Below, piece after piece: positions 27,377 through 64,000 of a DNA stretch of 64,000 nucleotides. How positions within the stretch are numbered: position 1 is the stretch's first letter; the number at the start of each line of letters is the position of its first letter. The notes beneath the pieces are model-generated. The model had not been told where the DNA came from and did not search any database. It worked only from the letters and a program-made list of their open reading frames with translations. The DNA is from Olavius algarvensis Delta 4 endosymbiont (GTDB taxonomy: Bacteria > Desulfobacterota > Desulfobacteria > Desulfobacterales > CAJINA01), in assembly GCA_905176665.1 (NCBI GenBank), contig CAJINA010000259.1, forward strand, positions 24,363 to 88,362, written 5' to 3'. A program made the position numbers and the translations under genes.

Positions 27377-28570
27377 TTAATTCGGGCAAACTGACTTATA
27401 AAATTCATACTCGCCCTTGTCGCTGATCTTGACGATGACGGCGCATTTAATCGGATCGCCGTCTTCGGTAAAGGTCATACCACCGGTGATGCCGTCAAAG
27501 TTTTTAATCTTGGCAAACGCATCCCGGACAGCTTTGCGGTCTTTCTTGAGATCGCCGGTAATCTTGCCGGAATTCTCGATGGCCGTCTGGGCCAACCGCA
27601 GGGCATCCCAGGTCAGGGCACCCACGTCATCCGGAACATAGCCGTGCTCCTTGTTGTAACGGTCGATGAACGCCTTGGTGGCGCCGGTGGCACCGGCGGC
27701 CGCATAGTGTGTGCTGAAGAACTGACCGTAGCAGTCCTCGCCGCAAAGTTTTACGGTCTCGGCGCTGCCCCAGCTGTCGCTACCGACAACCGGTCCGTTA
27801 AAACCCAGTTCGTGGGCCTGCTTCACGATCAGGGCCACTTCATTGTAATACTGGGGCGTAAACAGGAACTGGGCCCCGGAATTTTTGATCACGGTCAGCT
27901 GGGCACTGAAATCAACGTCCTTGGTGGTGAAGCTTTCATAGGCTACCACGCTGCCGGCACCGTTGACTTCCTCCCAGGCTTTTTTGAAGAACTCGGCCAG
28001 GCCCTTGGGATAGTCGCTGGCCACGTCGTACAGAACCGCCGCTTTGGTGAAACCGAACTCTTCCTTGACGAAGTTGGCCACAACCGGCCCCTGGAAGGGA
28101 TCCAGGAAACAGCCGCGGAAAACATACGGACGGTCCTTGGTGGTATTGGGATTGGTAGACCAGGGGCTCACCATGGGCGTCATGTAGTTGTTGGCCACGT
28201 CGCCGGCCGGAACCGCCTGCTTGGAGGACTGCGGACCTACGATCACGAGCACCTCGTCTTCTGTAATCATCTTGGTGTTGGCCTTGACCGCGGATTCGGC
28301 TTTGGACTCATTGTCCTCGATTACCAGTTCCACGGGGTATTTCTTACCGCCAACTTCCAGGCCGCCCGCTTTATCGATGTCGGCTTTCCACATCTGGGCT
28401 GCGAATTTGGTGCCCTCCCCTACTTTGGGAATGTCACCGGTAATGGGGGCATTGATCCCGATCTTGATGGATTTCGTTTTCTGCCAGGGCCACTTGAAAC
28501 TCCAGGCATTACTTGAAAACACCAGTCCCAGGACCAGTATCATCACGACAAATGACAGATCTTTTCGCAT
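27377..28570 (-). CDS. livK: ABC transporter periplasmic amino-acid-binding protein (Leu/Ile/Val-binding family)
   Basis: 397 aa with a signal peptide. It is the first gene of the liv-type operon. Confidence 0.85.
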   Translation of the reverse strand: MRKDLSFVVMILVLGLVFSSNAWSFKWPWQKTKSIKIGINAPITGDIPKVGEGTKFAAQMWKADIDKAGGLEVGGKKYPVELVIEDNESKAESAVKANTKMITEDEVLVIVGPQSSKQAVPAGDVANNYMTPMVSPWSTNPNTTKDRPYVFRGCFLDPFQGPVVANFVKEEFGFTKAAVLYDVASDYPKGLAEFFKKAWEEVNGAGSVVAYESFTTKDVDFSAQLTVIKNSGAQFLFTPQYYNEVALIVKQAHELGFNGPVVGSDSWGSAETVKLCGEDCYGQFFSTHYAAAGATGATKAFIDRYNKEHGYVPDDVGALTWDALRLAQTAIENSGKITGDLKKDRKAVRDAFAKIKNFDGITGGMTFTEDGDPIKCAVIVKISDKGEYEFYKSVCPN

Positions 28571-40156: not shown

Positions 40157-41161
40157 ATGTCACCACGGTTAACCAGACGATCATTTTTAAAAGCCGGCGC
40201 CCTGACCGCCGACGCTGTCGCATCAGCCGGTCTACAGGCACCCCGCACAGCCGCCGCGGCCGGTGGTCAGGAACTGTGCACTCTCCTGGATATTCGCAAG
40301 TGTATCGCCTGCGGAGAATGTGTTTCCGCCTGCCGCGAAGTCAACGAGCAAAAATTTCCTGAACCGCAAGGCGCCATGCCCGATATGCTACCCCACAACA
40401 GGGTGAAAATCGCCGACTGGTCCGCACCGGAAAAACGGGAAATAGACCATCGCCTCACCCCTTATAATTGGCTGTTCATCCAGACCGCTGAAGGCCGGTT
40501 CAAAGGCAAAGATTTTGAAATCAACATCCCCCGGCGCTGTATGCATTGCCGCAATGCGCCCTGCTCCAAACTCTGCCCCTTCGGTGCCGCTTTTACCCAG
40601 CCAAACGGCATCATCCGGATTCACCCGGAGGTCTGTATGGGCGGAGCGAAATGCAAGCAGGTCTGCCCCTGGCATATCCCCGAAAGACAATCCGGTGTGG
40701 GGCTGCACCTGAACCCGCTACCCCAGTATGCCGGCAATGGTGTCATGTATAAATGCGATCGCTGCTACCATCGCATCGCCGACGGGAAAGTACCGGCCTG
40801 TGTGGAAGTCTGCCCCGAAGACGTACAGCAGATAGGTCCCCGGGATGCGATTGCAGCCCAGGCCTATGACCTGGCCAAGGAAATCGACGGGTACGTTTAC
40901 GGCGACAAGGAAAACGGCGGCACCAACACCCTCTATGTATCGCCCGTCCCCTTTGACGTCCTGAACAAGGCCATCGAGAAAGGGCCGGGAGAACCCCACC
41001 TGAAATCGGTGGCCGATGTTATGGCGGCGCCCAACAGATGGGCGACTGCGCTGGCAGTGGCCCCGGTGGCCGGAGTCCTGGGAGCCCTGGCCCGGTTCAA
41101 GCCCCTGGCCACGAACCTGGAGGCTGAAAAGGAGGACAACGATGAAACCCAGCCGGAGTAG
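40157..41161 (+). CDS. Tat-exported 4Fe-4S ferredoxin-type protein (DmsB/HybA/NrfC-like electron-transfer subunit)
   Basis: 334 aa with twin-arginine signal TRRSFLKAG. Cys clusters are CIACGECVSAC, CMHCRNAPCSKLCP, CMGGAKCKQVCP and CDRCYHR...CVEVCP. Confidence 0.8.
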   Translation: MSPRLTRRSFLKAGALTADAVASAGLQAPRTAAAAGGQELCTLLDIRKCIACGECVSACREVNEQKFPEPQGAMPDMLPHNRVKIADWSAPEKREIDHRLTPYNWLFIQTAEGRFKGKDFEINIPRRCMHCRNAPCSKLCPFGAAFTQPNGIIRIHPEVCMGGAKCKQVCPWHIPERQSGVGLHLNPLPQYAGNGVMYKCDRCYHRIADGKVPACVEVCPEDVQQIGPRDAIAAQAYDLAKEIDGYVYGDKENGGTNTLYVSPVPFDVLNKAIEKGPGEPHLKSVADVMAAPNRWATALAVAPVAGVLGALARFKPLATNLEAEKEDNDETQPE

Positions 41162-41597
41162 TCGCGGACTGAATTGGCTGTTCGCAGCGGCCCTGCTCGT
41201 CGCCCTGTTTACCGGGTTCGGCAACATGCCCCTGTACGGTCGCTATTACATTGCCGATATCCCCGGTTTCCAGTGGTCCGGAAATTTCATCGCCAACTTG
41301 AAAGTCCACCTGGTCACCGGCGCCCTGCTCGCGACACTGGCGGCATACAGCCTGGTTGGATCTGTCCGCCGGAAATACAAGTGGTCCGATTTCTCGGCTT
41401 CGCAGAAGTTGCTGCGCATCTCCGTTGTCCTGGTCCTGGTGTCGGGACTGCTGGCCGGTCTGAAAAACTTTGCCTTTCTGACGCCGGGATTGGCCCTCAA
41501 CATGACGCTCACCTTTTTCCATTTAGGAACCGCCGTGCTTGTCGCCGTGGTAGGAATCATGACCTTGGTAATCGGCAAAAAGAAAGTTGCCCGATGA
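41142..41597 (+). CDS. small integral membrane protein (about 4 TM), possible membrane anchor / b-type cytochrome-like partner
   Basis: The start MKPSRSSRGLNWLF at 41142 is preceded by AAGGAGG and overlaps the upstream gene by 20 nt. There are two His in predicted helices. The ORF track extends to 41016. Confidence 0.55.
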   Translation: MKPSRSSRGLNWLFAAALLVALFTGFGNMPLYGRYYIADIPGFQWSGNFIANLKVHLVTGALLATLAAYSLVGSVRRKYKWSDFSASQKLLRISVVLVLVSGLLAGLKNFAFLTPGLALNMTLTFFHLGTAVLVAVVGIMTLVIGKKKVAR

Positions 41598-43982: not shown

Positions 43983-44108
43983 CGTGAGGGATCCGGGGCT
44001 GTTTTAGTTTGACAATAGAACCCTCCGATTATAGGTATGAGATGTCTTCACACTGGGAATTCAACCCCGAATTTCATGGCAATACACATAAATCCGAAGG
44101 AGGGAACG

Positions 44109-45140
44109 ATGAAGGACGCATTGTTGTTTCGCAGAGTACTGCTGTTTGGTTTGGCGCTCGCCCTGGTCTGCGGTCCGGTTTTACCGGCAGCGGCGGATAC
44201 GTGCAAGAATCGCGGTACCCTGGATGTCAGGTATTGCGACGAAAATGGCGACCTGGTAGCGGATCCCCCGAAGGATTCGAGTAAGTGGCTCAACCCCAGC
44301 ACCCTGGTTTTTTCGTACACCCCGGTCGAGGATCCATCTGTTTACGAGAACGTGTTCACCGAATTCATGGACTACCTCGCTGAAAAAACCGGGAAGAAAG
44401 TTCGTTGGTACGGGGCCGAATCCTACGCAGCCCAGGTGGAAGCCATGCGCTCCGGACGGCTGCACGTGGCCGGTATCTCTACCGGTCCCACCTGCTTCGG
44501 CGTCAATCTGGCCGGGTACGTACCTTTCTCCATTATGGGCAAAGCGGATGGGTCCTTCGGGTACAAACTGCAGGTCATTACCCATAAAGATACCGATATC
44601 ATGGCGCTCAAAGATATGAAGGGCCGGAAAATCGCCCACGTCACGCCATCTTCCAACTCCGGGAACCAGGCTCCCAGGGCGCTATTCAAGGCCCAGGGTG
44701 TCCAACCGGATGTGGACTACAAGGTGATGTATTCCGGCAAACACGACAACTCCATCATGGGCGTGGCCAACAAGGACTACGATGCCGCCCCCATCGCCTC
44801 CAGCGTCCTGGACCGCATGGTTCAAAAAGGGGTCGTCAATATGGATGACCTACGGATCATCTGGGAATCCAAACTGTTTCCGACCACCTCCTACGGACAC
44901 ATATACAACCTTGATCCGAGCCTGGCCAAAAAGATCGTAGACGCCTTTTTAACCTTTGACTGGAAGGGCTCCGGCCTTGAAAAAGAATTCGGTAAACAGG
45001 CCGACCGTTTCATTTCGATCACCTATGAAAACCATTGGTCCGATATCCGCACCATCCAGCAGACCAATGGCGTGGTGTATAGTGATGAGTCTTTACAGGG
45101 ACTCAAAGTCAAGAAAAAGAAGAAGAAAAAGAAAAAATAG
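44109..45140 (+). CDS. phnD: phosphonate/phosphite ABC transporter substrate-binding protein with C-terminal poly-lysine tail
   Basis: The start MKDALLFRRVLLFGLALAL at 44109 follows GAAGGAGG. A signal peptide and the PhnD-like core (YAAQVEAMRSGRLHVAG, SNSGNQAP) are present. The protein ends KVKKKKKKKKK. Confidence 0.85.
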   Translation: MKDALLFRRVLLFGLALALVCGPVLPAAADTCKNRGTLDVRYCDENGDLVADPPKDSSKWLNPSTLVFSYTPVEDPSVYENVFTEFMDYLAEKTGKKVRWYGAESYAAQVEAMRSGRLHVAGISTGPTCFGVNLAGYVPFSIMGKADGSFGYKLQVITHKDTDIMALKDMKGRKIAHVTPSSNSGNQAPRALFKAQGVQPDVDYKVMYSGKHDNSIMGVANKDYDAAPIASSVLDRMVQKGVVNMDDLRIIWESKLFPTTSYGHIYNLDPSLAKKIVDAFLTFDWKGSGLEKEFGKQADRFISITYENHWSDIRTIQQTNGVVYSDESLQGLKVKKKKKKKKK

Positions 45141-48245: not shown

Positions 48246-49417
48246 ATGAAAGAGCGTACCAAGTTATTATGGATTGTGGGTATTTTTTCAGCCGCCTATT
48301 ACGTGCCGTGGAGCCATCCACTTATCCGGCAGTCCGGGCTGGAAGCCTTTATGATGTTGCAGGAATATGCCCGGGAACATGTCCTGACCTGCCTGATTCC
48401 AGCATTTTTCATCGCCGGTGCCATTGCCGTGTTTGTTTCACAGGGCGCGGTCTTGAAATATTTTGGGGCCCAGGCCAGTAGATTCTGTCATACTCGGTTG
48501 CATCGGTTTCGGGAACTATCCTGGCGGTCTGTTCCTGCACTGTGCTGCCTTTGTTCGCCGGTATCTATACCCGCGGGGCCGGGATCGGGCCGGCTACAGC
48601 ATTTTTATACTCAGGCCCTGCCATCAACGTACTTGCAATCACGTTAACGGCCAAGATTCTGGGCTGGCAACTGGGGCTTGCCCGGGCCATCGGTGCGGTT
48701 GTTTTTGCTATTGTGACCGGACTGTTGATGACCCTGATTTTTCGCAAGGATGACGCTGCCCGTACGGCGGGTCAGATTTATGTACCGGATTCTGAAGGTA
48801 AGGAGCGTACACTGTTCCAAGACACCCTGTACCCGTTAACGATGGTTCTGATACTGGTATTTGCCGCTTTTGCAAAACCGGCACCGGGATCTACCGGTTT
48901 ATGGCCGGCTATTTTTGCTGCCAAGTGGTATATCACCATTGCTCTCCTGATTATCCTTGGTTTCATGCTGAAGTCCTGGTTTACCCGAGATGAGTGCAAA
49001 AGCTGGGTGGAGTCCACCTGGGGATTTATGAAGCAGATCTTTCCACTCCTGGCCGGCGGAGTTTTGGTGGCTGGCTTCCTTCTGGGTCGTCCGGGCCATC
49101 CGGCCCTGATTCCTGAGCAATGGGTCCAATCCCTCTTGGGCGGGAACTCATTTTCGGCTAACCTGATCGCCTCATTGGCCGGTGCTTTTATGTACTTTGC
49201 CACCCTTACCGAGGTGCCGATTTTACAGGGCCTTCTGGGTGCCGGCATGGGCCAAGGCCCGGCCCTGGCCCTGCTGCTGGCCGGACCAGCGCTTTCCCTG
49301 CCCAACATGCTGGTAATCGGCAGTGTCATGGGGGCCAAAAAAACGGCCACTTTTTGTGGTATTATCGTTATCATGAGCACCTTTGCCGGGATGATTTACG
49401 GCACTTGGTTCGCATAA
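48246..49417 (+). pseudogene. COG0701/ArsP-like permease carrying a 1-nt frameshift
   Basis: Frame A reads ...VLKYFGAQAS up to about 48479. The conserved continuation ILSYSVASVSGTILAVCSCTVLPLFAGIYTRGAGIGPATAFLYSGPAINVL is in the -1 frame from 48482. The junction agtagatt is consistent with loss of one base. Confidence 0.7.
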
Positions 49418-50104: not shown

Positions 50105-51461
50105 ATGACTCGAAATAAGCCCGGGAAAACTATTCGCAGCGTCCTGGACGCCTGTGCCGATTGTGATACCTGCCGCTTTTTAATGGACGAAAGCTGCCCG
50201 CTGTTTCCGGAACTCTATCGGCTGTACGACCAGGAAAAGGAAAAAAATGAACCGGCTGACTACGATGCATTACGAAAGTTGGCCGACCGTTGCACCCTCT
50301 GTGGCCTTTGTCCCTGCCCCAACATTCGTGCAGATGTAATCCGTGAGAAAACCGAAAGGGTCCGAGAAGAAGGAATGCCTCTGGGCGTTCGCTTGCTGGC
50401 CGATGTACAGACATTTGGGCGCTGGGGCAGCCTGGCTCCAAAGGTCCTGAACAAGGTGCTTTCATTTGCGGCTGTCCGGCAGGTAGCCAAAAAAATAGCG
50501 GCGATCCACCCCAAACGTGACATCCCTGAATTGGCCGGGGAAAACTTCTTTCACTGGGCACAAAAAAAAGGCCTGGTGCACGCCGCACAGCAAGCCCCCA
50601 AGGTGACTTACTTTGCGGGTTGCTCTGCCGGATATCTGTTTCCGGATGTAGCCAAGGCTACTGTTAGAACCCTGCACAGCAGCGGTGTATCAATCTACGT
50701 GCCTCCCCAGCAATGCTGCGGGATGCCCAGCCTGCTCGAAGGTGATGCGCCAACAGCCCTTAAGCGCATGGGCGCGAACCTGAAAATTCTACTGCAGGCT
50801 TTAGCGGATGGATATGATTTAGTCTGCTCATGCCCCACCTGTGGATTTTTAATGAAAGTGCTTTTAAAGGAAGGCGCGTTTTACTCGACTGATTATCAGC
50901 AATCGGTATCACCTGACGACAACGAAATGTGGGTTCCCGGAAATGAAACGGGAACGTCCAGTTTCATGCGTTTAAAAAAATCAGTCTATACAAAGATACT
51001 TACGGACAACAGCTACTTTTCTGACCTCGAGCCGCTGGAAAGGATCAACCTGGCTGCAAATATAATGGATTTGGGCCAATATCTAGAACGACTGCATGGT
51101 CGGGACCGTCTTAATACGCAGTTTGCAGCCGTACCTGGCCACATGGTATATTATGCGCCCTGTCACCAGCGGGAACAGCGAATGGGTACGCCCTACCTGG
51201 ACTTACTGTCAAAAATTCCTGATCTGAAAGTTAAACGGGTCGGCAACCAAATGGATTGCTGCGGCATGGGGGGGCAGCTTAGGCTATAAGCAAAGTTTTC
51301 ATGATATGGCGAAGCAGTTGGCCGAGCCGTTGATGCGCGAAATTCAAGCTGCCCAACCGGAGGCCATTATCACCGATTGCTTGAGTTGCCGGCTCCAATT
51401 TCAACATTTACTGCCTTACCCTGTATTTCATCCAGTGGAAATCATCTCGCAAGGGTACTAA
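50105..51461 (+). pseudogene. Fe-S oxidoreductase with two CCG domains (GlpC/GlcF/HdrD-like) carrying a frameshift in a G7 run
   Basis: The N-terminus has CADCDTCRF and CTLCGLCPCP clusters. CCG motifs are PPQQCCGMP and MDCCGMGG. The track ORF stops at 51289. Removing one G from the run at 51268-51274 gives MGGSLGYKQSFHDMAKQLAEPLMREIQAAQPEAIITDCLSCRLQFQHLLPYPVFHPVEIISQGY, ending at 51461. Confidence 0.7.
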
Positions 51462-51683
51462 AGAGCTATGTGCCCATACGAATCAAAATTATAACCAGCC
51501 GGGCTGTCACCAAAAGGTCGCAGAGGTAGTAAGAGAAAAAGTGTGTTTAGTACAAGAGGAAGTATCTTCGCTCTATGACTGAGTACAAAGTAATGCATCC
51601 GCCCATAAAGTTACTGATATTAAAAGCTTCTCTTCGCTGGATAAATTCGAATGGATGCACGAATAAATTCTATTGAAGACACA

Positions 51684-52084: not shown

Positions 52085-52984
52085 CTATCTGGCCTCGGGG
52101 TTGGCAGGCGTGATACTGAGCAGCTGGTTGATTTCGCTTAATAAACGGCGATAAATGAGCTTGTTGGCTTTCTCCAGAGTGTAGGGCAGACATTCTTCCA
52201 CGGCACCAGTTTTCAAAGCGATACGTTGCAATTCTGCAATCAGCCCCGCACCATCAACTTTCTGGCTGCAGCAGGCCGTGCAGCGCCGGCAGGCCAGGCA
52301 CAGCCAAAGCGACGGTGATGCCAGCAACTCCTGATAAAGTCCGAGGTTAACCATGCGGAAAAGCGCGCGTGGATCGAAGACGTTGCGACTACCGGACGCC
52401 GGGCACCCGCTGCTGCATTCACCACGCGTAAAACAGGCCTGGGCTTGATGGGCGCTGGTCAATTTCCCGGTAAAGGATCTGACGGCGCTGTCCGCTCTGC
52501 CGGTAATGGCGCGCCCATCGGCGGGAATGGACGTATCTATCCAGCGATACCAAGTTGAATCTGATAAGTCTTCGAGTTCACCGCCCGCCAGGCAGATGGC
52601 GGTCGCTTGCCAGCGTACGCGCTGAAAACGCATCCACAGATCATAGTGTTTCTTTGCGGTTCCACGGGAAATATCGCCCCGGCGTATTTCTTCCGTGCGC
52701 ACATAATCAATGACAGCAGCCGGGCTGACAGTATTAGGGCATATATTGGCACAGCGCAGGCAGCGCTGGCAGTACCAGATATCCGGCAACTCGAGCAAGT
52801 GCGGCAACATCCCGAGGGCCGCCATACGCACAATACTTCGCGGCCGAAGGCGGCCGGTGAAAATGTTTACCGGGCATTCGAAGTCGCACGATCCACAGGT
52901 CCAGCAACGTTGAATACCGGCTAAATATACGGACTCAATCGAATTTCTCTGCTGGCGATCAACTCTGATGACGGGTGTATACAT
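52085..52984 (-). CDS. tandem HdrC-like 4Fe-4S protein
   Basis: 299 aa. The first module has CWTCGSCDFECP and CQRCLRCANICP. The second, degenerate module has CFTRGECSSGCP and CLACRRCTACC. Confidence 0.6.
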   Translation of the reverse strand: MYTPVIRVDRQQRNSIESVYLAGIQRCWTCGSCDFECPVNIFTGRLRPRSIVRMAALGMLPHLLELPDIWYCQRCLRCANICPNTVSPAAVIDYVRTEEIRRGDISRGTAKKHYDLWMRFQRVRWQATAICLAGGELEDLSDSTWYRWIDTSIPADGRAITGRADSAVRSFTGKLTSAHQAQACFTRGECSSGCPASGSRNVFDPRALFRMVNLGLYQELLASPSLWLCLACRRCTACCSQKVDGAGLIAELQRIALKTGAVEECLPYTLEKANKLIYRRLLSEINQLLSITPANPEAR

Positions 52985-53026
52985 ATCAACCTTTTCAGAT
53001 CAACACCTTCATTCTCAAGTGAAGAA

Positions 53027-53926
53027 CTATAAAAATTGTAGTATATATTTGAGAGCCACCAGGCAAATTACTGACGCCAGGATCAGTTTGATGGCGGTAG
53101 CGGGGAATCTTTTCTGGAAACGGGCACCGCAGTTCATACCAAGCAATCCGCCTACGCCGAACAGCAGGCCCAACAACCAATCAGGCGGGGCCGTCATCCC
53201 CTGTGAAATGGGGGCCAGGGAATAGATCGTTACACCTGCCAGGGAAATTATAAAATTTACCGTTAGAACGGCTTCGGCAATTGCATGGACCGGCAAATGC
53301 AAAACCGTTACCAGAAAGGGGGCCAGAAGGGCACCGCCGCCAATTCCGTATGTCCCGCCAATAACGCCAACGCAAAAGGCCGGCACCATTACCGCAGGGA
53401 TGCGGAAACAGAATTTGTGGCCGCGGTAGGCAAACTGCACCGCATGACTGCCTTCAACGCCGGTACACGACAAACCCGTCTCAGGCTCTCCAAGCCCCTG
53501 GCTGCGAATATGGTTGTAAATATCCTTCACCAGCCTCCAGGCAACAATCAGCAAAACTACACCTACAAATAATTTAAAATTTCGTGGATCGGGAAGGAGA
53601 ATTACCCTCAAGTAATACCCAAGCAGTACACCCGGCAGGGCGCCTGCAATCATGGTCAAAGCCAAACGCCAGGCAACCCGGCTTTCCCGGGCGTATTGGA
53701 TCACACCGCCGGGTGTTCCAACCACGTTGTAGAGAAAATTAGTAGCCGTTACCGATGGCGAAATAAACCCCAAGACACTCACCTGAAAAGGCATCAGTAA
53801 AAATGCACCGGAAATACCGGCCATTGAGGTAAAAAAAGAGATGCCGAAAGCAACGGCCGGCGGGATGAATAGGAAGGTCTCGATACCGGCGACAGGGAAC
53901 TGTATGAACAGGAAGTCCGCCCACAT
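53027..53926 (-). CDS. TauE/SafE-family sulfite/anion exporter-like membrane protein
   Basis: 299-aa polytopic protein with two internally repeated halves, each with a GGTYGIGGG-type glycine motif. Confidence 0.75.
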   Translation of the reverse strand: MWADFLFIQFPVAGIETFLFIPPAVAFGISFFTSMAGISGAFLLMPFQVSVLGFISPSVTATNFLYNVVGTPGGVIQYARESRVAWRLALTMIAGALPGVLLGYYLRVILLPDPRNFKLFVGVVLLIVAWRLVKDIYNHIRSQGLGEPETGLSCTGVEGSHAVQFAYRGHKFCFRIPAVMVPAFCVGVIGGTYGIGGGALLAPFLVTVLHLPVHAIAEAVLTVNFIISLAGVTIYSLAPISQGMTAPPDWLLGLLFGVGGLLGMNCGARFQKRFPATAIKLILASVICLVALKYILQFL

Positions 53927-54008
53927 GGTTTTTCCGTTTAAGAGATAGATGGCCGTTTACAGCACGAAAAGGCTTCAATCTTGGTATCCGGGTGCCATTA
54001 AATACCGG

Positions 54009-55040
54009 CTACATGCCCTTGCCAAACGGGCAGTGGGGATAACTGCACTCAGGGCAGTCCTTACACAATCCACCGTGGCCGATGAAGGCCAGCTCTTTGC
54101 TGGTTATCTTTTCCCCGGCCAGTATCCGCGGCAGCACCAGATCTAGTACTGTGATACGGTGATGCAGCCCGCAGGCCGGAATCCCCAGTAGGGGGACGTC
54201 ATCTATATAGGCCACCAGGAACATGGCCCCCGGAAGGGCGGCGGCGCCATAATAGAATTCAGTTGCACCGGCAGCCCGGATGGCTTTGCGGGTTACGTCA
54301 TCCGGATCCACACTCATGCCGCCGCTGAGCAGCAGGAGGTCGCAGCCGGTATCCAGGTGCTCAAGGATCGCAGCTGCAATCAGGGCTTCATCGTCGGGGG
54401 CCATCGATATCCCGGCCACGTTGGAGCCCAGGGCCTGTATTTTTTCGGTCAGGATCGGTGCAAATTTATCATCGATCAGACCATGAAAAACTTCGCTGCC
54501 CGTGACGACCAAACCTGCTCGGGCCTTTTTCAAGGTCTTCACGGTGATAATCCCGCCATTTTGCGCGGCGATGGCAGCTGCCCGGTCCACCGGGGCCCGC
54601 TGCATGACCAAAGGAATCGCCCGGGTGGCCGCCACCAATTCACCTTTTGCAACCAGGGTGTGGCTGTGCAAGGTGGCACACATCACCTCATCCACCAGGT
54701 TAAAAGCCGCCAGGGCGGCGGCATCCACCGTCAGCAGACCGTCACAGGCGGCATGCAGAGCAATCTTGCCTTCCCGGGGGTCATCCTCCCATTGGATCCC
54801 TTCACCAGCCAAGCTTTTGGCCAGTATTGTCGCCGCCTGATTTTCGTGGATTTCACCTTCGGCCAGATCGATGAGATAGAGGTGGTTCTTGCCAAGCTTC
54901 TGCAGATGACAGATATCTTCGTGGCACACTTCGTGGCCTTTGCGAAAAGCCGCCCCCTTGAACTCGCCGGGCCTGATCTCAGTAATGTCGTGTGCCAACC
55001 GGGTACCGACAGCCTTTTCTAAGCTTATCTTTTTTAGCAT
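54009..55040 (-). CDS. MoeA-like molybdopterin-binding protein with Cys-rich C-terminus
   Basis: 343 aa with the MoCF-binding motif LLLLSGGMSVDPDD. The C-terminus is GGLCKDCPECSYPHCPFGKG. Confidence 0.65.
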   Translation of the reverse strand: MLKKISLEKAVGTRLAHDITEIRPGEFKGAAFRKGHEVCHEDICHLQKLGKNHLYLIDLAEGEIHENQAATILAKSLAGEGIQWEDDPREGKIALHAACDGLLTVDAAALAAFNLVDEVMCATLHSHTLVAKGELVAATRAIPLVMQRAPVDRAAAIAAQNGGIITVKTLKKARAGLVVTGSEVFHGLIDDKFAPILTEKIQALGSNVAGISMAPDDEALIAAAILEHLDTGCDLLLLSGGMSVDPDDVTRKAIRAAGATEFYYGAAALPGAMFLVAYIDDVPLLGIPACGLHHRITVLDLVLPRILAGEKITSKELAFIGHGGLCKDCPECSYPHCPFGKGM

Positions 55041-55080
55041 GACGATCTATTCCAGTCCTTTTTTAGAATTCAACACGGGT

Positions 55081-55767
55081 TCAGCGCATAACAGACAGGC
55101 GATATTGGCAGGCTTGACCCGGGCGCACTGCTTCGGACGGACTGTCACCGGGAGCCCAATCCATGCCGGGCCAGGTTATTTCGCGGGCGTTGCTGAAATA
55201 GCAATTATCTGAACAGGGACTGCAGAGGAGCAATCCGTTTTCGACCTTCTCGCGACCGTCCCGGATGACCTGGCCGCAGCGGCTGCAGACAACTTTCCGA
55301 CGGGTCGGTCCCGGCAGGTCGCATGCTGCGAGCGCTACGTGTACCTTCTGCACCCGGAACAGGACGCTGTCCGGTATCCTTTTATAGGCAGCCAACTGCT
55401 GCGGCCCTTTTCCAGCAACATCCGGGGCATAAACGGCCGCCAGATCACGCGCCTCTTCCGTGGAAACAACCCGAAATGATCGGTCGGTCTCAAGGTTTAT
55501 AAACGTAGCCGCCATAATGCCGTAATCGACAAACTTGAGGCTGCGCCGTCCGAGCTTCACACCGGTCACGTGGGCAACGGCATCTGCAGTGCAGCGGTCC
55601 ATTTCAACATACACGATGAGCTTTTTGATCTGGTCCCTGCGCCGGGGGTGGTCGAGACCGATCAACCGGCAGCCGAGCATGGCCATCCGGACCCCCACGA
55701 TCTGCCCGGGACAAAGATGCCCATGGGCCTTGGCAGAAGACTCAAGTAAAACTTCGAACGGCTGCAT
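55081..55767 (-). CDS. FmdE-family protein with C-terminal zinc-ribbon
   Basis: 228 aa with HGHLCPGQIVGVRMA and DRCTADAV (FmdE core), plus CSRCGQ...LLLCSPC. Confidence 0.8.
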   Translation of the reverse strand: MQPFEVLLESSAKAHGHLCPGQIVGVRMAMLGCRLIGLDHPRRRDQIKKLIVYVEMDRCTADAVAHVTGVKLGRRSLKFVDYGIMAATFINLETDRSFRVVSTEEARDLAAVYAPDVAGKGPQQLAAYKRIPDSVLFRVQKVHVALAACDLPGPTRRKVVCSRCGQVIRDGREKVENGLLLCSPCSDNCYFSNAREITWPGMDWAPGDSPSEAVRPGQACQYRLSVMR

Positions 55768-55799
55768 ACAATCAATCCCTCAATCCGGTTGGCATGAAG

Positions 55800-56483
55800 C
55801 TACTCTACAGCCGTTTCCGATTGCGCGTGCCAATCGGCCACCGTTTCACCAAGCCGCTGCATGTCCTCCCTTATGAACTGCTGGGTGGCGGTAGCCAAAT
55901 ATCTGTAATATGGCAGCTCTGTTTCCTGGATGGTCAGACCGGTGAAGGCGTCGATCCACTGCCCCAGATGAGAATCTAGAAATTCAGATTGCTGCACGAG
56001 GCTTGCGGCGGCTTCATCAGCACGCCCCTTGTGGAGACAATTCAATTCTTCAACGATAAGCACGTGCATGAACTCCAGCTCGGCACTAATGTGGTCGGGC
56101 GGATTTTTGAAACCTTCATCTACGGTCAAACCGGCCGCTAAATAGCGTTTGACGACATCCAGGGTGCTGTCTCCCATGATTTGACGCTTGTCATCGAGGT
56201 AAATGGAACCGAAAGGCGGTGCCAGAAGCTGATACGGGCCGATAAAGAGTTTGGCGAACTGAATCTCGAGGTCGTCGACACTAATGCTTGTGTTCAGCTC
56301 ACTGCGCATCATGATCACTTGTGAAATAGCGATCGACCCCGTGGCGCACAGTCCTGTTTCGAGCTGTTTCAAAACTTCACTGATACCCGGTTCAGGCGGG
56401 CTATAGCATTTTGAAAACGCACGATAAAGTTCACTGCGGTATTTCTCAATACTCAGTACATCGTTCTCATTCATGTCATCCAC
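55800..56483 (-). CDS. TorD/DmsD-family redox-enzyme maturation chaperone-like protein
   Basis: 227-aa helical protein placed between the NrfD-type and FmdE genes. YRAFSKCYSPP and FAKLFIGP are typical of this family. Confidence 0.6.
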   Translation of the reverse strand: MDDMNENDVLSIEKYRSELYRAFSKCYSPPEPGISEVLKQLETGLCATGSIAISQVIMMRSELNTSISVDDLEIQFAKLFIGPYQLLAPPFGSIYLDDKRQIMGDSTLDVVKRYLAAGLTVDEGFKNPPDHISAELEFMHVLIVEELNCLHKGRADEAAASLVQQSEFLDSHLGQWIDAFTGLTIQETELPYYRYLATATQQFIREDMQRLGETVADWHAQSETAVE

Positions 56484-56588
56484 TCCATGTGTAATAATGA
56501 GTTGCCACTGTAAAGACCATCAGCTTTGAGACCTACGAGGCGGCCGGGAGGTAAGCGGCGGCCCCGCAGTGCTCAGGGCCGGCCGCAG

Positions 56589-57695
56589 TTAATCCGGCAC
56601 GGCTTCCAGTTTCAGGTAGCGCTCACCGATGCTGTACACCAGCAGCATGACCGCGAAGCCAAACAGGGCCACGAAGACCTCGTAGACAGTCGGCATATAG
56701 CTGACAATTTCAGGGCGGCCTTCCGCCATTTGACCGAGCGGCCGGACAACACCGCTGAGCACAAACTCCAAACGCCCGGCAAACATGCCGACGAGCAGGA
56801 GCGCACTGGCAGTAATCTTGCCCCCAACGGTAGCTCTGATTTTTGGAACCAGCATCAAGACAGTGGGCGCGACCAGACCCAGCCAGAATTCGATATTGTA
56901 TGGGATTGAACCGACCATGTGCTTGAAGGCCTGATATTCCACAGCAGTCGAAGATATACCGCCGCTGACGGTACGCCACAGAAAAAGGACCCCGATAACG
57001 CCGGCGACAATTCCCATCAATCGCGCAAACTCATTGAAAAGAGCGTCTCTGTCGGCGGTCAATGACTGATTCGTCAGATAGTTGTATATCATGGTAAACA
57101 AAAGCAGCGCAGCCATCCCGGAAGCAAGCCCGGTGAGTGGGAAATAAAAGGAAAAGAAAGAGGCATTCAAAGACGGTCGCGCATCGGTCATACCCAACAA
57201 CCAGCCAAGGGTCGTGGATGTAAAGATAGCAATTATGAAGACCAACATCCCCAATGTTTTGCTTATGGATCCAGTGTGTATGCGCCAGAACGCGCTGAGC
57301 AGCAGAACAAAATAAGCACCGTAGAGCACAGCCAACCACCATAACGGTGAGGCCGGATTTGGGGAAAGCAAAATATAGATGACATTCAATGGGGCGCCGA
57401 GATGCAGAATCAGGCAAACAAAGGAGCCGAGCAAAACAGCAATCTCCAGATACACCGTACGTTTTTCAATCACCTCGTATCGTTTTATACCGAACACGAC
57501 TGGAAAAGAGGAGACGAAGGCCAAGCCGGCGCTGGTAAGGCTGAAAAATATATAGGTCGACAGTGGCAAAGTCCAGACCAGGACATCCGTTTTGGCATAC
57601 ACTGCAAACCCGACGGAATAGACTTTGAAAGTTGTCCAGAGGCCGAGAAGAATGCCGAGGCCCAGCAATCCAATCCAAAGATTATATCTATTCAT
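56589..57695 (-). CDS. NrfD/PsrC-type polytopic membrane quinol-interacting subunit
   Basis: 368 aa with about 8-10 TM. It directly abuts the Fe-S subunit gene (57695/57696). Confidence 0.8.
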   Translation of the reverse strand: MNRYNLWIGLLGLGILLGLWTTFKVYSVGFAVYAKTDVLVWTLPLSTYIFFSLTSAGLAFVSSFPVVFGIKRYEVIEKRTVYLEIAVLLGSFVCLILHLGAPLNVIYILLSPNPASPLWWLAVLYGAYFVLLLSAFWRIHTGSISKTLGMLVFIIAIFTSTTLGWLLGMTDARPSLNASFFSFYFPLTGLASGMAALLLFTMIYNYLTNQSLTADRDALFNEFARLMGIVAGVIGVLFLWRTVSGGISSTAVEYQAFKHMVGSIPYNIEFWLGLVAPTVLMLVPKIRATVGGKITASALLLVGMFAGRLEFVLSGVVRPLGQMAEGRPEIVSYMPTVYEVFVALFGFAVMLLVYSIGERYLKLEAVPD

Positions 57696-58421
57696 TTATA
57701 CACCTCCTTTCGTCCTTGGGTAACCGGCCGAGCTGAAATCCCTGATGTAGTAGACCGCAGGTTCCGTCCCCACGGCTTCCTTCAGCCGAAATGGTCTGAA
57801 CTTACCCAATAATTGGTTAACCTCACTTTTAGGATCGTCGAGGTCTCCGAAAACCCGGGCGTCCGCCGGACAGGCTTCCACGCAGCGCGGCAACTTGTCC
57901 CGCGAGACCCTGTGATCGCAAAACGTGCATTTCTCCACGACCCCTTTGGGCCGGATATCAGGCAGGGTTGCGCCGCGTTCGGGGTTAAAATATGGTACGC
58001 CCTTTCCGCCGTTCTTACGAACTTCTTCGGCCGGCGATGAGGTCACGTTGGGAATTACGGCTTTGTTGTCCTTCCAAGAGGCGTGGGCATTTTTCCAGTT
58101 GAAGTAAATCACCCCGTACGGGCAATTGATCATGCAGTACCGGCAACCGATACATTTGTCCGGGTCATGCATGGTGATGCCGTTATCAAGTTTGTGCATC
58201 GCCCGCGTGGGGCAGCCGCGCACACAAGGGGGATTTTCGCAGTGGTTGCATAGAGTCGGGATATAGTGATACCGCACATTGGGAAATGTTCCCGAGGTTT
58301 CCGTTATTTTATGCGACCAGTAGAACCCTTCCGCCACGTTGTTTTCATTGCGACAAGAAATACTGCAGGAACCGCAGCCAACGCACCGCCGAAGGTCGAT
58401 GACCATTGCATATCTTGGCAT
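57696..58421 (-). CDS. four-cluster 4Fe-4S subunit (PsrB/PhsB/DmsB-like)
   Basis: 241 aa with CVGCGSCSISC, CNHCENPPCVRGCP, CIGCRYCMINCP and CTFCDHR...CVEACP. Confidence 0.9.
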   Translation of the reverse strand: MPRYAMVIDLRRCVGCGSCSISCRNENNVAEGFYWSHKITETSGTFPNVRYHYIPTLCNHCENPPCVRGCPTRAMHKLDNGITMHDPDKCIGCRYCMINCPYGVIYFNWKNAHASWKDNKAVIPNVTSSPAEEVRKNGGKGVPYFNPERGATLPDIRPKGVVEKCTFCDHRVSRDKLPRCVEACPADARVFGDLDDPKSEVNQLLGKFRPFRLKEAVGTEPAVYYIRDFSSAGYPRTKGGV

Positions 58422-58432
58422 TGTTTCCCTCC

Positions 58433-61015
58433 TTATAGTTTTTCAATTTTAAGCCGGGTTACGGCATAGTAAGCTGAGCTTCCGCTCAGGGCTTCGTATT
58501 GGGCCGGAATCAAGTCGTTGCTACTGCCTCCACGGGGGGTTTTCCCGAACTCTTCAGAGGCAATTTTTCCATAGGCCCAGTGGCCCTGCCCATAGCACTT
58601 TGCTACCGTACCCGGGCGAACCCCTTCCCAGAGTTTGGCCGTACAGACCAAACTCCCCGTCGGCGAGGAGAGCTTGATCCGGTCTCCATTGGCGAGGCCC
58701 AGCTTGGCGGCATCCAGGGGATTGATTTTGGCCACGTCATCCCAGGTTTCATCACCGGGATCCAGGTCCTTGAAGTCGAAGTACCAGGTGCAGTTGGCTG
58801 ATCGTCCCTCCCTGTTCAGACGAGATTTGTGGTCCACGTGGATGAATGGATACTCCTTTTCATCCCCCAGTATGAAAGGCTCTTCATAATGAGGTACGAA
58901 TGCCATTTCGCCCTTGGCCAGATACTTGGCGGCCTCCAAAACTTCATCGACGGAAACGCCGTGTTTTCCGGCGTGTTTTTCAAGGGCCGCCTGGAGGGTT
59001 TTGCTGTAGAATTCAAACTTGCCAGTTTTGGTCTTCATCTTGCCCCAGCGTTTACGGAAAGGATACGGATTAGAGTTCCACACCCCCACCTTGGCAAACT
59101 CCTTCCAGCCGTTGAACTTATCACCGCCCTTGTATTTGGCCGGGTCCCACAATTTTTGGGTGGCATACTTGAGGGCATAAAGGGCAAACTCTTTTTCGTT
59201 CCTTGGCGCTTTGCCCGTTTCCGGGTCCTTATAGGTTTTATAATGCCGCAACAGGTTGTCAAAGCCGCGCTTGGCCAGTTTTTCGGCAATCAGCCAGGGA
59301 ATCTCAGTCTCGTCGGTTTTGTAATCCCACAGGTTTTTTACGATGGGCTGCATCAGGGTGACATGCCGGTACCCGTTGGCGTGCGCTTTTACATAGCCCC
59401 ACTTTTCGAACATGTGGTGGGTATCCGGCAACACGATATCGGAAAACCAGGAGAACTCCGACGCGTTGGTGGTAATATGGACCAGAAAAGGAATTTTCGA
59501 CAGGGCTCGTTCCCAGCGTTCCGGCTGTGGCGCCGAAAACGAGAAATTGTTCATATAGGCAATGGCCACTTTGATCTCGTTGGGATCGGCATTGAGAATA
59601 CCATCCGCGGCATTGTTGGTAATAACGCCGCTGCCCGGGTTACCTTTTTTCAGGCAGGGGATATGCAGTCACCCGCGTTGATCGATCTTCTCATGTTTCT
59701 TGCCCTTTTTCGCGATTTCGTCCATGAACGGTTTGGGCTTGGGAAACTTGGTCGTATACTCCTTGTTGGCTTTCAACGTGCCGCCAAAATTGTCCGCGGC
59801 TCCGACAATTCCGTTCAAAGCATGCACAGCCATGGCTGCGTACCCGCCGCGGACTTGCATACAGGGCCCGCCGCCCAGCCAGGAGATGCAATGGGGGGCT
59901 GCCTTGCCATAGCCGATCGCCACGCGCCGAATCTGCTCTGCAGGTACTCCGGTTATCGGGGCCGCCCATTCGGGGGTCTTATCTTTCAAGGCCAGATTCC
60001 AGTATTTAACAATACCGTAGGTATGCATTTCCTCGAAGGCATCTTCCGCGACCGTTTCTCCTTTCACGAAAAGATTGACCCCCTCTTTGAAATCGCCCAC
60101 GAATGGTTTGTACCAGAGCCCTTCGGTCAGCAGGACGTGGGTAATCGCCAGCGCCAGGGCGCCGGCCTGGCCGGGTTTGATCGGCAGCCACTCATCGGCT
60201 TTGCCGGCCGAGGCTGACAGCCGGGGTTCGACTATCGCAATGGTGGCCTTGTCCACCACGTCTCCCCAAACCTTTGAATAGTACGAAACCTGGCGGTTGG
60301 CCGCCAACGGGTCGGCCCCCCAAAGGAGAACATAGTGGGCATTGAGCACGTCGTACTGCCGATAGCCCCAAATGCCCTCGGTATAATAAGGACCGAACTT
60401 TTCCGCCTCGGCGCACAATGAGCTGTGGGAAATGTTGTTGGGGGAGCCTATTATTTTGGTCATCCGGTCATACAGAATATCGCGCATGTACGAGTAACGC
60501 CCGCGCATCAACATGTACTTGTGGGTTTCGTTGTTGTTGCGCAGCTCCATAATTTTATCGGCTATGGTATCCAGGGCCTCATCCCAGGAAATGGGCACGA
60601 ACTGCGGATCTTCATTGCGCCCCTTTTTAGGATTGGTACGTTTCATAGGCGTTTTGATACGGTCCGGATCATATAACTGCTGGAGCCCCATATGAGAGCG
60701 CGGGAAGCCCGCCCCCATATTCACCTTCGAATGCGGATTGCCGCGGACTTTTACAGCGCGGCCATCAATGACATACACCTGCTTGGAGCACCAGGACGTA
60801 CACCCCTGGCAGGTGGCCGGGAGCCACTCCCCCAAGTCTCCCGAACCCTTGCCTGAAGCGACCGCCAGGGCGCTCAGTTCCGGTTTTAGTCCCGCTCCCA
60901 TAGCCACGGCAGCTCCGGTAGCTGCAGAGGCCTTGACAAAAGAGCGGCGTGAGAGCTTCACATTCTTCAAAAAACCAGCCATCAGGGTTTTCGGCTTATT
61001 TTTCGTTTTTTTCAT
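58433..61015 (-). CDS. Tat-exported molybdopterin oxidoreductase catalytic subunit (PsrA/PhsA-like) containing one in-frame TGA (selenocysteine or nonsense)
   Basis: The start MKKTKNK at 61015 follows GGAGGAG. The Tat motif is SRRSFVKAS. The N-terminal cluster motif is CQGCTSWC and the putative Mo-ligand region is SHSSLCAEAEK. ORFs 59669..61210 and 58433..59569 share one frame, separated only by TGA at 59669-59671. Confidence 0.8.
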
Positions 61016-61094
61016 CTCTCCTCCATTTTGAAAGTTATGACCGTCAGTTTCGGTATTTTCGGGTGGCGGTGTTTGCTGCCGGACAGCAACAATA

Positions 61095-61505
61095 TCACTT
61101 CCCACCTTGATCTTTATCCGGAGGATCGCGGGTATCGGCCTGATTCTCACGGATGCAGCGAATCCAGTAGACCAGTTCATCGGGATCGACCGGTTTGTTG
61201 ATGCAGGCAAAAATATGGTAGCAAAGGGCTTCTTTGAGCTCCGGATGGAAACGATCCCGGGAAGTGCAGAGAAAGCAGACGTCAGGATAAGCCAGGGTCA
61301 GGCTGCGGATCGCACGATTGCCGATATCCAGGCTGTCGATATCCAGTACAACCGCCATATAGGATGAATCGGCCAGGATCTTCATCATGTCAGCCAGCGT
61401 GTGGCAGGTTCGGCTCCGGTACCCTGCTGATACGATTATATCCGTCAGGAGAGCCGCTTCATCCCGATCCAAACTGGCTATGAGGATACTGGGGTCATTT
61501 TCCAT
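61095..61505 (-). CDS. single-domain receiver-like protein (CheY-like)
   Basis: 136 aa. AVVLDID (phospho-acceptor position), LCTSRD and INKP match receiver landmarks. The N-terminal acidic pair is atypical (SLDRDE). Confidence 0.55.
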   Translation of the reverse strand: MENDPSILIASLDRDEAALLTDIIVSAGYRSRTCHTLADMMKILADSSYMAVVLDIDSLDIGNRAIRSLTLAYPDVCFLCTSRDRFHPELKEALCYHIFACINKPVDPDELVYWIRCIRENQADTRDPPDKDQGGK

Positions 61506-61977: not shown

Positions 61978-64000
61978 TTAATGCAGTGTGGGCTTCTTTA
62001 TATCGTATTTTTTTAGTTTTTCATAAAGCGTGCTGCGGCTGATGCCAAGTTGGGCGGCCGCGGCACTCTTATTCCAAGCGCAGGCTGCCAGCGCGTCCTG
62101 GATCAACTGTTCTTCGCTTTCGATCATGGTGAGGGTTGCTCCGGCGGCGGGCTTTCGAATGCCGGTCTCTTGGCCACCCTGGAGTGAAATCGGCAGATCA
62201 CCCGTCTGAATCTTGTTGGTTTTAGCAAGTACAACCGCGTGTTCGATACTGTTTTCCAGTTCGCGTACATTCCCGGGCCAGGAGTGGTCGAGCAGCAGGC
62301 GCATGGCCTCCTCGCTGACGCCGGACATGGGTTTATCACGTTCACGGGCAAAGTGTTTGAGAAAATGGGTGGCTAACAGCGGGATGTCGTTGCAGCGCTC
62401 CCGCAAGGAGGGTATATTTATGGGGATCACATTGAGCCGATAGAAAAGGTCTTCCCGGAAACGGCCGGCCTTGACCTCATCTTCGAGCTTGCGGTTGGTG
62501 GCGGCGAGGATACGCACGTCGACCTTTATGGATTTATCTCCCCCAACGCGCTCAATGGTGTGATTCTGCAGGACCCGCAGAAGCTTGATCTGAGCTGTGG
62601 GTGAGATCTCTCCAATTTCATCTAGAAACACGGTGCCGCCGTTGGCTTGCTCAAAACGCCCGATTTTGTGCCGGGTAGCCCCGGTAAAGACGCCTTTTTC
62701 ATGCCCGAACAATTCACTTTCCAACAGAGTTGCCGGGTAAGCGGAACAGTTGATCACCACGAAAGCGTTTTCACACCTTTCGCTGGCTCTGTGGATGGCC
62801 TTGGCCACCAATTCCTTGCCGGTGCCGCTTTCACCCAGGATTAAAACCGTCGCATCCGTAGGCGCCACATCTTCAATGAGCTGATATACCATCTGCAGTT
62901 TTGGGTCGCGGCCGATAATGTCGCCGTAAGCCGATGATTCTTCAACTCGGGTCCGGAGCGAATGCATAGCCCGTTCCCCAATCAGGGCCCGATTCAGAGC
63001 TCCGGCGGTTTGATTTATCAGCAGCGACACCATGCGCAGTTCATTTCTAACACAATGACAATGATCTGTGCAGCCCACTAACAGGGCGCCAAGTGGCCGA
63101 TTTTCATGGTAGAAAGGAAATAGAGCCACTCTACGGGTAGCCCTCACCTGCTCGGGCAAGGCCAGCTTTGCGACCTGGTCGCCTGCCAGCCACCCGAATT
63201 CGTCGATCTCTGCCACCAGGCCAGCGAATTGCGTATAGGCCTCTGTATAAAATGGCGTAGTTGCACCCAGGGTAATATACATCATTGTGTTACGTTTTTC
63301 GTCCAAAACCACGATCGACATGTTCCGGCACTGCACGATGGAACCCAGGGTTCCGATCATGTAGTCAGCCAATTCGTTTAATGTCGATAAAGCTGCGATA
63401 TGCTGTGAAAAAGTCAAAGAGGCGGAAAGTTGTTTTCGAGCCCGGTCGAGCTCAACGTTCTTGGCTTCGAGCTGTTCCTTCGATTGGTTAATTCTGGTCA
63501 GGTAGTTTTTAACCCGGTCAAGCATGCCATTGAAAGCATCGGTGAGCGCAGCTACTTCTTCACGCCCCTGAATATCCAGTCGCGTATCCACTGATTTCTC
63601 GTCGATGGTTGCAACCGCAATCTTGAGCTGTGTCAGGGGGCGTAAAAGCCTGCTGCTGAGAATATTTGTCAACATCAATGCTATCCCCAGTATGATCAGG
63701 GTCAACATTGCCATGGAAATCCACATCGCAGCGACCTGTTCACGGTAGGGCGCTTCCGCCAGCCCCACCCGGAGTGTACCAGCCCGGCCGCCGAAAATGG
63801 GCAGGGCGACATCAATGAACCGTTCTTTTTTCTCGGAATTGACCTTTACTATTTGACTGTGCTTTTCGGTTGGGTGGGGCAGGTTCAGATCGATGAGAGC
63901 CCTCGGTATGCCGCCTTTAAACGTGTGCGCCACGACCTGACGGTCCCGGTTGACAACGAAAAGATAGGCCACGGTCGCATCGCTGGCAATCTGGTCTTGA
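61978..64000 (-). CDS. sigma-54-dependent transcriptional activator with extracytoplasmic sensor region, TM helix, HAMP, GAF-like, AAA+ and Fis-type HTH domains (N-terminus beyond window edge)
   Basis: AAA+ motifs are [21 protein letters not shown] (a GAFTGA variant) and VFLDEIGE. The C-terminal HTH is [22 protein letters not shown] helix ([23 protein letters not shown]) is followed by a HAMP-like segment. The frame stays open to position 64000. Confidence 0.85.

Follow-up and report, generated by a model that had tools for sequence, protein, structure and literature searches.

A predicted arsenate respiration operon with a disrupted arrA allele and a separable putative cofactor module in the Delta 4 endosymbiont of Olavius algarvensis

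Introduction

Among the closest described counterparts of the gene cluster treated in this study is the crystallised respiratory arsenate reductase ArrAB of Shewanella sp. ANA-3 (PDB 6CZ7-6CZA). The cluster itself lies on the minus strand at positions 52085-61505 of a 64,000 nucleotide (nt) stretch, hereafter the window, of contig CAJINA010000259.1 from the Olavius algarvensis Delta 4 endosymbiont, a sulfate-reducing member of the Desulfobacterales living in a worm; its FmdE-family protein is an exact match to CAD7849286.1 of this symbiont. A preliminary description made from the sequence alone had taken it for an uncharacterised PsrABC-like system whose substrate could not be read. Our analysis makes it likely that the locus is instead an arrABCD operon for respiratory arsenate reduction, followed by a separable molybdenum/tungsten (Mo/W) cofactor module and carrying an arrA that is most likely dead in the sequenced strain.

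With Shewanella ArrAB the locus shares a 59% identical ArrA, a twin-arginine translocation (Tat) signal, the RGRY motif, the Mo-ligand Cys/arsenate-binding residues and a four-cluster ArrB. It differs in encoding an NrfD-type ArrC and a TorD-type ArrD (according to PMC2762525, Shewanella has neither arrC nor arrD and the electrons come from the cytochrome CymA), in its sigma-54 regulation, and in the window allele being truncated, with the fourth FS0 Cys gone. In Chrysiogenes arsenatis (arrXSR/arrAB; ArrX, PDB 6X6B) an ArrX-like PhnD-family protein likewise stands beside a sigma-54-dependent activator upstream of arr. The Delta 4 locus, however, has no separate histidine kinase or receiver-containing regulator; its activator itself carries a transmembrane (TM) segment and a HAMP domain, and a stand-alone receiver-like gene comes first in the predicted operon. 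Alkalilimnicola ehrlichii (arxB2ABCD/arxXSR) offers the same A-B-C-D subunits, a TorD-like D and a regulatory module based on a periplasmic binding protein (PMC6549141), whereas its ArxA carries XGRGWG where the window and 80 relatives have RGRY, and arxB2 is absent from the window locus. Thermus thermophilus PsrABC (PDB 2VPW) shows the same general build, i.e. a Tat-exported subunit with molybdenum bis-pyranopterin guanine dinucleotide (Mo-bisPGD), a four-cluster Fe-S subunit and an NrfD-type anchor, but with 130 bits against 1150 for ArrA it belongs to a different clade and, by prediction, serves a different substrate. A further parallel is moeA/chlE downstream of aioBA, an example of molybdenum cofactor (Moco) biosynthesis genes within arsenic-oxyanion enzyme clusters. 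In these clusters a MoeA-type gene stands directly behind an arsenic-transforming molybdoenzyme, as it does in the window. The window protein, in contrast, lacks MoeA domain IV, ends in a Cys-rich tail and has an FmdE-family zinc-ribbon protein as its partner, and modules of its type variably include HdrC-like, TauE, MobB, MOSC and TupBC-like genes.

Results and Discussion

The predicted arsenate reductase core

By homology the catalytic subunit (arrA, 58433-61015, minus strand, 860 codons, interrupted) is ArrA, a predicted respiratory arsenate reductase, and its substrate is to that extent readable from sequence. Pfam finds a Tat signal and the Molybdop_Fe4S4, Molybdopterin and Molydop_binding domains of a Mo-bisPGD enzyme. 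The NCBIfam model ArrA (NF041714) is the top match, end to end, with 1297.5 bits; the runner-up PhsA reaches 241 bits (cut-off 694) and TtrA 49 bits (cut-off 1750), so that neither of these two NCBIfam families is matched at its cut-off. Among solved structures Shewanella ArrA (PDB 6CZ7_A) is matched with 1150 bits over query residues 61-859, at 59% identity across 801 columns, and the next structure, PsrA (2VPW), with 130 bits only. A search based on ArrA recovered 80 related loci (69-89% identity), for the most part from Desulfobacterales metagenome-assembled genomes (MAGs). The Mo-ligand Cys/arsenate-binding residues that Glasser et al. reportedly described in 2018 for Shewanella ArrA (R165, Y166, H189, S190, C193, K198 and Y210, which agrees with the numbering of 6CZ7) align to window residues 173, 174, 197, 198, 201, 206 and 218; all seven are conserved, and they are invariant in 81/81 sequences (window plus 80 relatives). 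The same 81 sequences all have RGRY, at residues 171-174 of window ArrA, and the motif XGRGWG is not present there; (R/K)GRY near the catalytic pocket is indicative of ArrA, XGRGWG of ArxA (PMC6549141).

The partner genes follow in the order expected from arrABCD, an order kept in relatives. The four-cluster Fe-S electron-transfer subunit ArrB (57696-58421; Pfam Fer4_11) has NF041715 as its top NCBIfam match (329 bits; the cut-off of 450 is not reached) and is 71-90% identical among relatives. ArrC (56589-57695) is an NrfD/PsrC-type integral membrane anchor, predicted to oxidise quinol (Pfam NrfD, 64 bits), whose position is conserved in 60 loci, and ArrD (55800-56483) belongs to the TorD/DmsD family of chaperones for Tat proofreading and cofactor insertion (Nitrate_red_del 104 bits; top NCBIfam models DmsD and TorD). 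While arrABCD clusters are already known from Desulfobacterota MAGs (PMC10060404), our literature search yielded no study of arsenate respiration in the symbionts of Olavius.

The preliminary description was right about the architecture, a periplasmic, quinol-linked molybdoenzyme of three subunits (Tat-signal Mo subunit, Fer4_11 and NrfD proteins), and it had listed a metalloid among the possible substrates, which agrees with a core that is ArrABCD. Its statements that the substrate could not be read and that the combination was no characterised system do not hold, given the bit scores, the top NCBIfam matches to both ArrA and ArrB, the invariant RGRY and an ArrX-like sensor gene upstream. It had also said what would overturn it, namely a catalytic subunit firmly inside a clade of known specificity with the same accessory genes already described: the former is what we found, but we came across no paper that describes the accessory set together with arr. 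This removes a false lead: what had been described as a PsrABC-like system without characterised counterpart can be recognised as an operon for arsenate respiration. The capacities predicted for this much-studied animal symbiont thereby come to include arsenate respiration, in part already lost.

The disrupted arrA allele

An in-frame TGA stands in place of CGA at codon 449 of the window arrA (R449stop, 59669-59671). An uninterrupted frame of about 850 codons is absent here, whereas sister haplotypes have an intact open reading frame (ORF) of 860 amino acids (aa). The preliminary description overlooked this codon and arrived at ten genes; there are nine, and ten only when the catalytic gene, split by the TGA, is counted as two ORFs. 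Relatives have Arg at this position in 73/78 cases and otherwise Thr or Gln, never Cys, and the codon of the closest relative is CGA. Two further substitutions affect conserved residues. C104F (codon 104 TTC, 60704-60706) removes the fourth Cys of the [4Fe-4S] motif C-x2-C-x3-C-x27-C, a residue that is Cys in 80/80 relatives and in all five sister contigs, and D284A (60164-60166) replaces an Asp that is invariant in 80/80 relatives.

The sister contigs, taken from JGI, ENA and Logan assemblies, match the window with 99.86-99.98% identity across 16.3 kb. They disagree at site 59671, where L082, L084 and L085 have T while L081 and L083 have C. Overall, the 448-aa truncated product is found on 57 contigs (52 + 4 + 1) and the intact 860-aa product on 34 (8 + 1 + 25), counts that pool assemblies with overlapping read sets and give allele frequencies only roughly. 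D284 is kept by the 26 contigs of a third haplotype, F104 is restricted to the window's allele (4 contigs), and L082 carries an independent W120stop in arrC. Since arrA is intact in sister haplotypes from other metagenomes, the TGA at codon 449 is a real CGA-to-TGA polymorphism of the population, and because intact alleles persist in the symbiont population, the loss of the gene is ongoing and polymorphic. The changes can be ordered as D284A first, R449stop second and C104F last, which looks like decay in steps. With a truncated and cluster-deficient ArrA the predicted arsenate reductase of the sequenced strain is most likely dead, and strains with the ancestral allele are probably still capable of arsenate reduction. 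ArrA offers a clean case of stepwise, still-polymorphic inactivation that can be traced across host individuals.

High density of single nucleotide polymorphisms (SNPs) at arr was considered as a sign of relaxed selection and rejected: the arr/ars region differs from sister contigs by 0.02-0.14%, a 21-kb housekeeping control of the window by 0.02-0.35%. The control has no indels relative to L088 and L089, and the excess at the arr locus consists of disruptive changes only, not of SNP density. Window ArrA has three singletons at invariant columns, more than any of its close relatives, although higher numbers occur in distant outgroups; the count is no more than suggestive.

Other genes near arr are disrupted too. 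In the ArsP_1-type permease gene by arsR (48246-49417, plus strand) a frameshift near 48470-48545, common to all near-identical contigs, leaves an ORF of 133 aa that covers profile positions 3-49 and, overlapping it in another frame, a second one of 291 aa that covers positions 70-293. In a gene for a two-CCG-domain (HdrD/GlpC-like) protein (50105-51650, plus strand; intact form 451 aa) an extra C at 51274 causes a frameshift in the window's strain only (4 contigs), and other haplotypes have a deletion at 50569 or truncated products of 202, 285 and 294 aa. In one symbiont haplotype (L081 and L083) the HdrC-like gene at the downstream end of the cluster carries, relative to window position 52767, a 9-nt tandem duplication in its first Cys motif (CQRCLRCLRCANICP), with which a C-x2-C-x2-C-x3-CP motif is nevertheless retained.

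Predicted regulation upstream of arr

Upstream of arr the window ends within a minus-strand gene (61978-64000) for a sigma-54 enhancer-binding activator with TM/HAMP, AAA+ and Fis-type helix-turn-helix parts (Pfam Sigma54_activat 242 bits, HAMP, HTH_8), the N-terminus of which lies beyond the window end. In the sister contigs L081-L084 the activator is complete with 745 aa and is preceded by a gene for a PhnD-family (PF12974) binding protein. Its best solved relative is ArrX (PDB 6X6B; 191 bits, E 2e-55), with AioX at 151 bits. In L081 this ArrX-like gene occupies 3253-4203, just past window coordinate 64215 and directly before the HAMP/sigma-54 activator gene. The lack of a separate histidine kinase suggests a signalling route from the binding protein to the membrane activator.

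The first gene of the cluster (61095-61505) encodes a single-domain receiver-like protein of 136 aa. The positions Asp55, Ser82 and Lys104-Pro are retained in it, the acidic pair at the N-terminus is not, and it scores 23.4 bits against Pfam Response_reg (cut-off 30.2, not reached). Its gene lies directly upstream of arrA in 59/80 loci. A sigma-54-type -24/-12 element, TGGCAT-N5-TTGT (61592-61578), lies 73 nt upstream of the ATG of this gene, and 43 of 59 related loci have TGGCAY-N5-TTGC at a distance of 59-115 nt before the orthologous gene. About 160 nt further upstream, at 61772-61753, a perfect 9+9 palindrome, TCCGGACAG-TC-CTGTCCGGA, is a candidate binding site of the activator; a looser palindrome, GGACA-N-TGTCC, occurs at similar distance in just 2 of the 59 related loci (L001 and L053). 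An Rfam search returned neither a Moco riboswitch nor any other Rfam family in the window.

The boundaries of the co-oriented minus-strand ORFs at 52085-61505 are those given in the preliminary description, with intergenic gaps of, in order, 79, 11, 0, 105, 32, 40, 82 and 42 nt. The families that it had named were recovered by Pfam for every gene, with the receiver-like protein below cut-off.

The putative cofactor module

Downstream of arrD come four genes for an FmdE-family protein, a MoeA-like protein, a TauE-type permease and an HdrC-like protein. The FmdE-family protein (55081-55767; PF02663, 97.1 bits, gathering score 22.9) has a C-terminal zinc ribbon of four Cys at residues 158-185 and matches PDB 2GVI. 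FmdE is 67-78% identical in 35 arr loci and occurs without arr as well. The next protein (54009-55040) is MoeA-like, a predicted molybdopterin-binding protein, and not a MoeA: of the MoeA domain set (MoeA_N, MoCF_biosynth and MoeA_C) it has only PF00994 (MoCF_biosynth), it reaches 33.7 bits against NCBIfam MoeA (cut-off 440), domain IV is absent, and it ends in an invariant C-x2-C-x2-C-x4-C tail. An AlphaFold2 model (predicted local distance difference test score, pLDDT, 75) is placed by Foldseek closest to MoeA, Cnx1E and gephyrin E, with probability 1.0. An FmdE architecture with an optional C-terminal treble-clef zinc finger has been described, and so have fusions of FmdE domains to PF00994 (PMC2954224); such fusions provide a Rosetta-stone link between FmdE and the MoeA-like protein. 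The third protein (53027-53926) is a TauE/SafE (TSUP) family anion permease (PF01925, 138 bits), and the last (52085-52984) a tandem HdrC-like Fe-S protein with two Fer4_8-type halves, the second degenerate, as identified with Pfam and NCBIfam. Both belong to the module only sporadically.

Where ArrD is present and the sequence extends 3 kb or more beyond it (53 loci), FmdE and the MoeA-like protein are both encoded directly after arrD in 28 cases, and at least one of them in 31. The tandem HdrC-like gene occurs in six arr loci (L002, L003, L021, L030, L046 and L062) and the window's type of TauE in two arr loci of the ArrA-based set. Relatives have additional genes at the module position: moaA in 11 loci, moeA in nine, mobB in seven and MOSC in six, and further mobA, a second TauE type, an HdrB-like CCG protein and a ModE-like regulator domain. 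The MoeA-like protein has at least 7994 homologues, the best 120 of which are orthologues at least 76% identical, and a search based on it brought further gene contexts. TauE adjoins the MoeA-like gene in L047, L051, L086, L091 and L093; in the first two of these a ModE-like regulator domain comes before it. L086 and L087, which lack arr, contain FmdE, MoeA-like, MOSC, MobB and HdrC-like genes, with the HdrC-like copies (48% identical) following MobB and the FmdE of L086 being a C-terminal remnant of 98 aa. L086 also has TupB/TupC-like (tungstate transporter) genes and TauE, and no molybdoenzyme is encoded within 10 kb of its module. In L092 and L093 the MoeA-like homologue sits with arrABCD, and in L091 and L094 FmdE and the MoeA-like gene come after genes for a HAMP/sigma-54 activator, an Fe-S protein, an NrfD protein and a distant TtrA-like subunit.

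As the module is found behind ArrABCD, behind a TtrBCA-like enzyme and without a molybdoenzyme, it is a portable block and not a substrate signature, and it is best read as Mo/W cofactor supply. The preliminary description had already suspected dedicated cofactor handling by FmdE and the MoeA-like protein; in agreement with this, relatives have MoaA, MobB, MOSC, MoeA and MobA at this position, and TupBC-like genes elsewhere. In contrast, its use of TauE as a hint at a sulfur oxyanion or sulfonate had to be given up, as TauE moves with the cofactor module and not with the enzyme. The conserved FmdE/MoeA-like pair, abundant as it is, makes a reasonable target for work on Mo/W enzyme maturation in sulfate reducers. 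A more far-reaching proposal is that the module, together with MobB, MOSC, MoaA, ModE-like and TupBC-like genes, forms an uncharacterised, portable system of the Desulfobacterales for supply and insertion of the Mo/W cofactor behind different periplasmic oxyanion reductases (ArrABCD, TtrBCA-like). We consider this unlikely though worth stating: if true, the system might provide a tungsten- or sulfide-proof cofactor route, and TauE could be a metal-oxyanion permease. A literature search brought up no paper tying FmdE or this accessory module to arr.

The TtrA-like enzyme itself (L091 2934-8237, L094 3075-8340) is encoded in the order B-C-A, with a catalytic subunit of 1046-1081 aa that scores 443-468 bits to TtrA (cut-off 1750), and may be an uncharacterised oxyanion reductase. 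A PhnD-like protein is encoded upstream in L094, and arsR, ArsP, ACR3-like, thioredoxin and DsbD genes flank the locus in L091.

In our working model the ArrX-like periplasmic protein would bind arsenate and signal to the membrane-anchored HAMP/sigma-54 activator (61978-64000 and beyond), which would fire the -24/-12 promoter at 61592-61578. The predicted transcription unit begins with the receiver-like gene, followed by arrA, arrB, arrC and arrD. If the proteins act like the characterised members of their families, the TorD-type ArrD would retain apo-ArrA until Mo-bisPGD has been inserted, ArrAB would be exported via the Tat pathway, the NrfD-type ArrC would oxidise menaquinol and pass the electrons through the four ArrB clusters and the [4Fe-4S] cluster of ArrA to Mo, and arsenate would be reduced to arsenite at the Mo centre in the periplasm. 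Judging from its context, the downstream FmdE/MoeA-like/TauE/HdrC-like module may feed or insert the Mo/W cofactor.

Weighing of alternative readings

Several points weigh against an arsenate reductase operon with cofactor module and dead arrA. The ArrA score of 1297.5 bits falls short of the NF041714 equivalog cut-off of 1600. Scores of 1265-1326 bits, likewise below it, were obtained for the intact sister allele and for five members of the clade that span four phyla (Desulfobacterales, Methanoperedenaceae, Omnitrophota and Pseudodesulfovibrio are represented), and since every clade member tested misses the cut-off, it is not informative on the window gene in particular. The arsenate specificity of the Desulfobacterales ArrA clade is itself a prediction from homology, and roles are assigned to FmdE, the MoeA-like protein, TauE and the HdrC-like protein from neighbourhood and fold. 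That the nine genes form one operon is suggested by orientation and spacing only, and co-transcription of arrABCD with the four genes downstream is likewise a prediction. The roughness of the allele frequencies belongs here as well, as do disrupted genes elsewhere in the genome: in L090, which represents a more divergent Delta 4 strain (99.65% identity), a housekeeping region contains a branched-chain amino-acid binding-protein gene that is split (3922-5114, approximately window 27377-28570), so disruption in the symbiont population is not limited to the arsenic locus. Finally, the Delta 4 symbiont decodes UGA as selenocysteine (Sec) in other genes; the machinery for Sec is present, and 23 selenoproteins are predicted (PMC1976440). 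This last point bears on the reading that UGA 449 is decoded as Sec or by read-through, yielding a full-length and possibly novel Sec-containing ArrA. A hairpin of 6 bp with GGU in its loop does begin 12 nt past the UGA, but the downstream fold is on par with shuffled sequences (z -0.94), and the CGA haplotypes carry the identical downstream sequence, so no selenocysteine insertion sequence (SECIS) has evolved along with the UGA. As the aligned residue is Arg, Thr or Gln in relatives and never Cys or Sec, and C104F, the loss of an Fe-S ligand, sits on the TGA allele too, Sec at codon 449 was rejected as extremely improbable. Equally improbable is the assumption that the gene is intact in the sequenced strain and that errors of sequencing or assembly gave rise to the TGA and the F104 codon. 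Both are single-base substitutions and MAG consensus sequences may contain errors, but the truncated product recurs on the 57 contigs across independent JGI, ENA, Logan and NCBI assemblies, F104 is coupled on its 4 contigs with the window-specific frameshift in the CCG-domain gene (50105-51289), and the 21-kb control is free of indels against L088 and L089. Sequencing error was consequently rejected as the source of the TGA.

A different specificity or direction of the enzyme, be it an anaerobic arsenite oxidase (Arx) or a sulfur-compound reductase of the Psr/Phs/Ttr type, would be compatible with the ABC(D) architecture common to Arr, Arx and Psr, with the score below the equivalog cut-off and with the TauE family gene. 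ArrA enzymes are moreover reversible in vitro. Yet the motif is the RGRY of ArrA and not the XGRGWG of ArxA, the sensor protein is closer to arsenate-binding ArrX than to arsenite-binding AioX, similarity to ArrA exceeds that to PsrA/PhsA by about 1000 bits, and TauE is part of a separable module; this alternative is very unlikely in our view. Better placed, and tentatively entertained, is an arrangement in two transcription units, with the receiver-like gene and arrABCD under the sigma-54 promoter and fmdE, moeA-like, tauE and hdrC-like under a promoter of their own. It is compatible with the reading as arsenate reductase plus cofactor module, yet conflicts with a single operon. The four-gene block or parts of it stand alone in L086 and L087 and follow another enzyme in L091 and L094, and the closest arrA relative, L001, has no such block downstream. 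On the other hand, the gap between arrD and fmdE is just 32 nt, the order arrD-fmdE-moeA-like is retained in 28 loci, and the minus-strand intergenic gaps contain no terminator-like hairpin, nor was any convincing intrinsic terminator found on that strand between arr and the module. Since the last four genes also form an independent block in genomes without the reductase, a single transcript for all nine genes is put forward only tentatively.

In L001, the nearest free-standing relative (arrA 89% identical), the sigma-54 activator, the receiver-like gene and arrABCD are kept, and there is no FmdE or MoeA-like gene within 7 kb downstream. The linkage of arr and module must have been gained or lost between close relatives.

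Other genes in the window

At 40157-41597 on the plus strand, a gene for an Fe-S protein of 334 aa with several clusters and a Tat signal is followed by one for a small membrane protein; the pair resembles a portion of another respiratory complex. In a phnDCEE-like ABC transporter, the substrate-binding protein of the PhnD family (44037-45140, plus strand) has an unusual C-terminal tail of ten lysines, encoded by an AAG/AAA-rich stretch at about 45105-45137.

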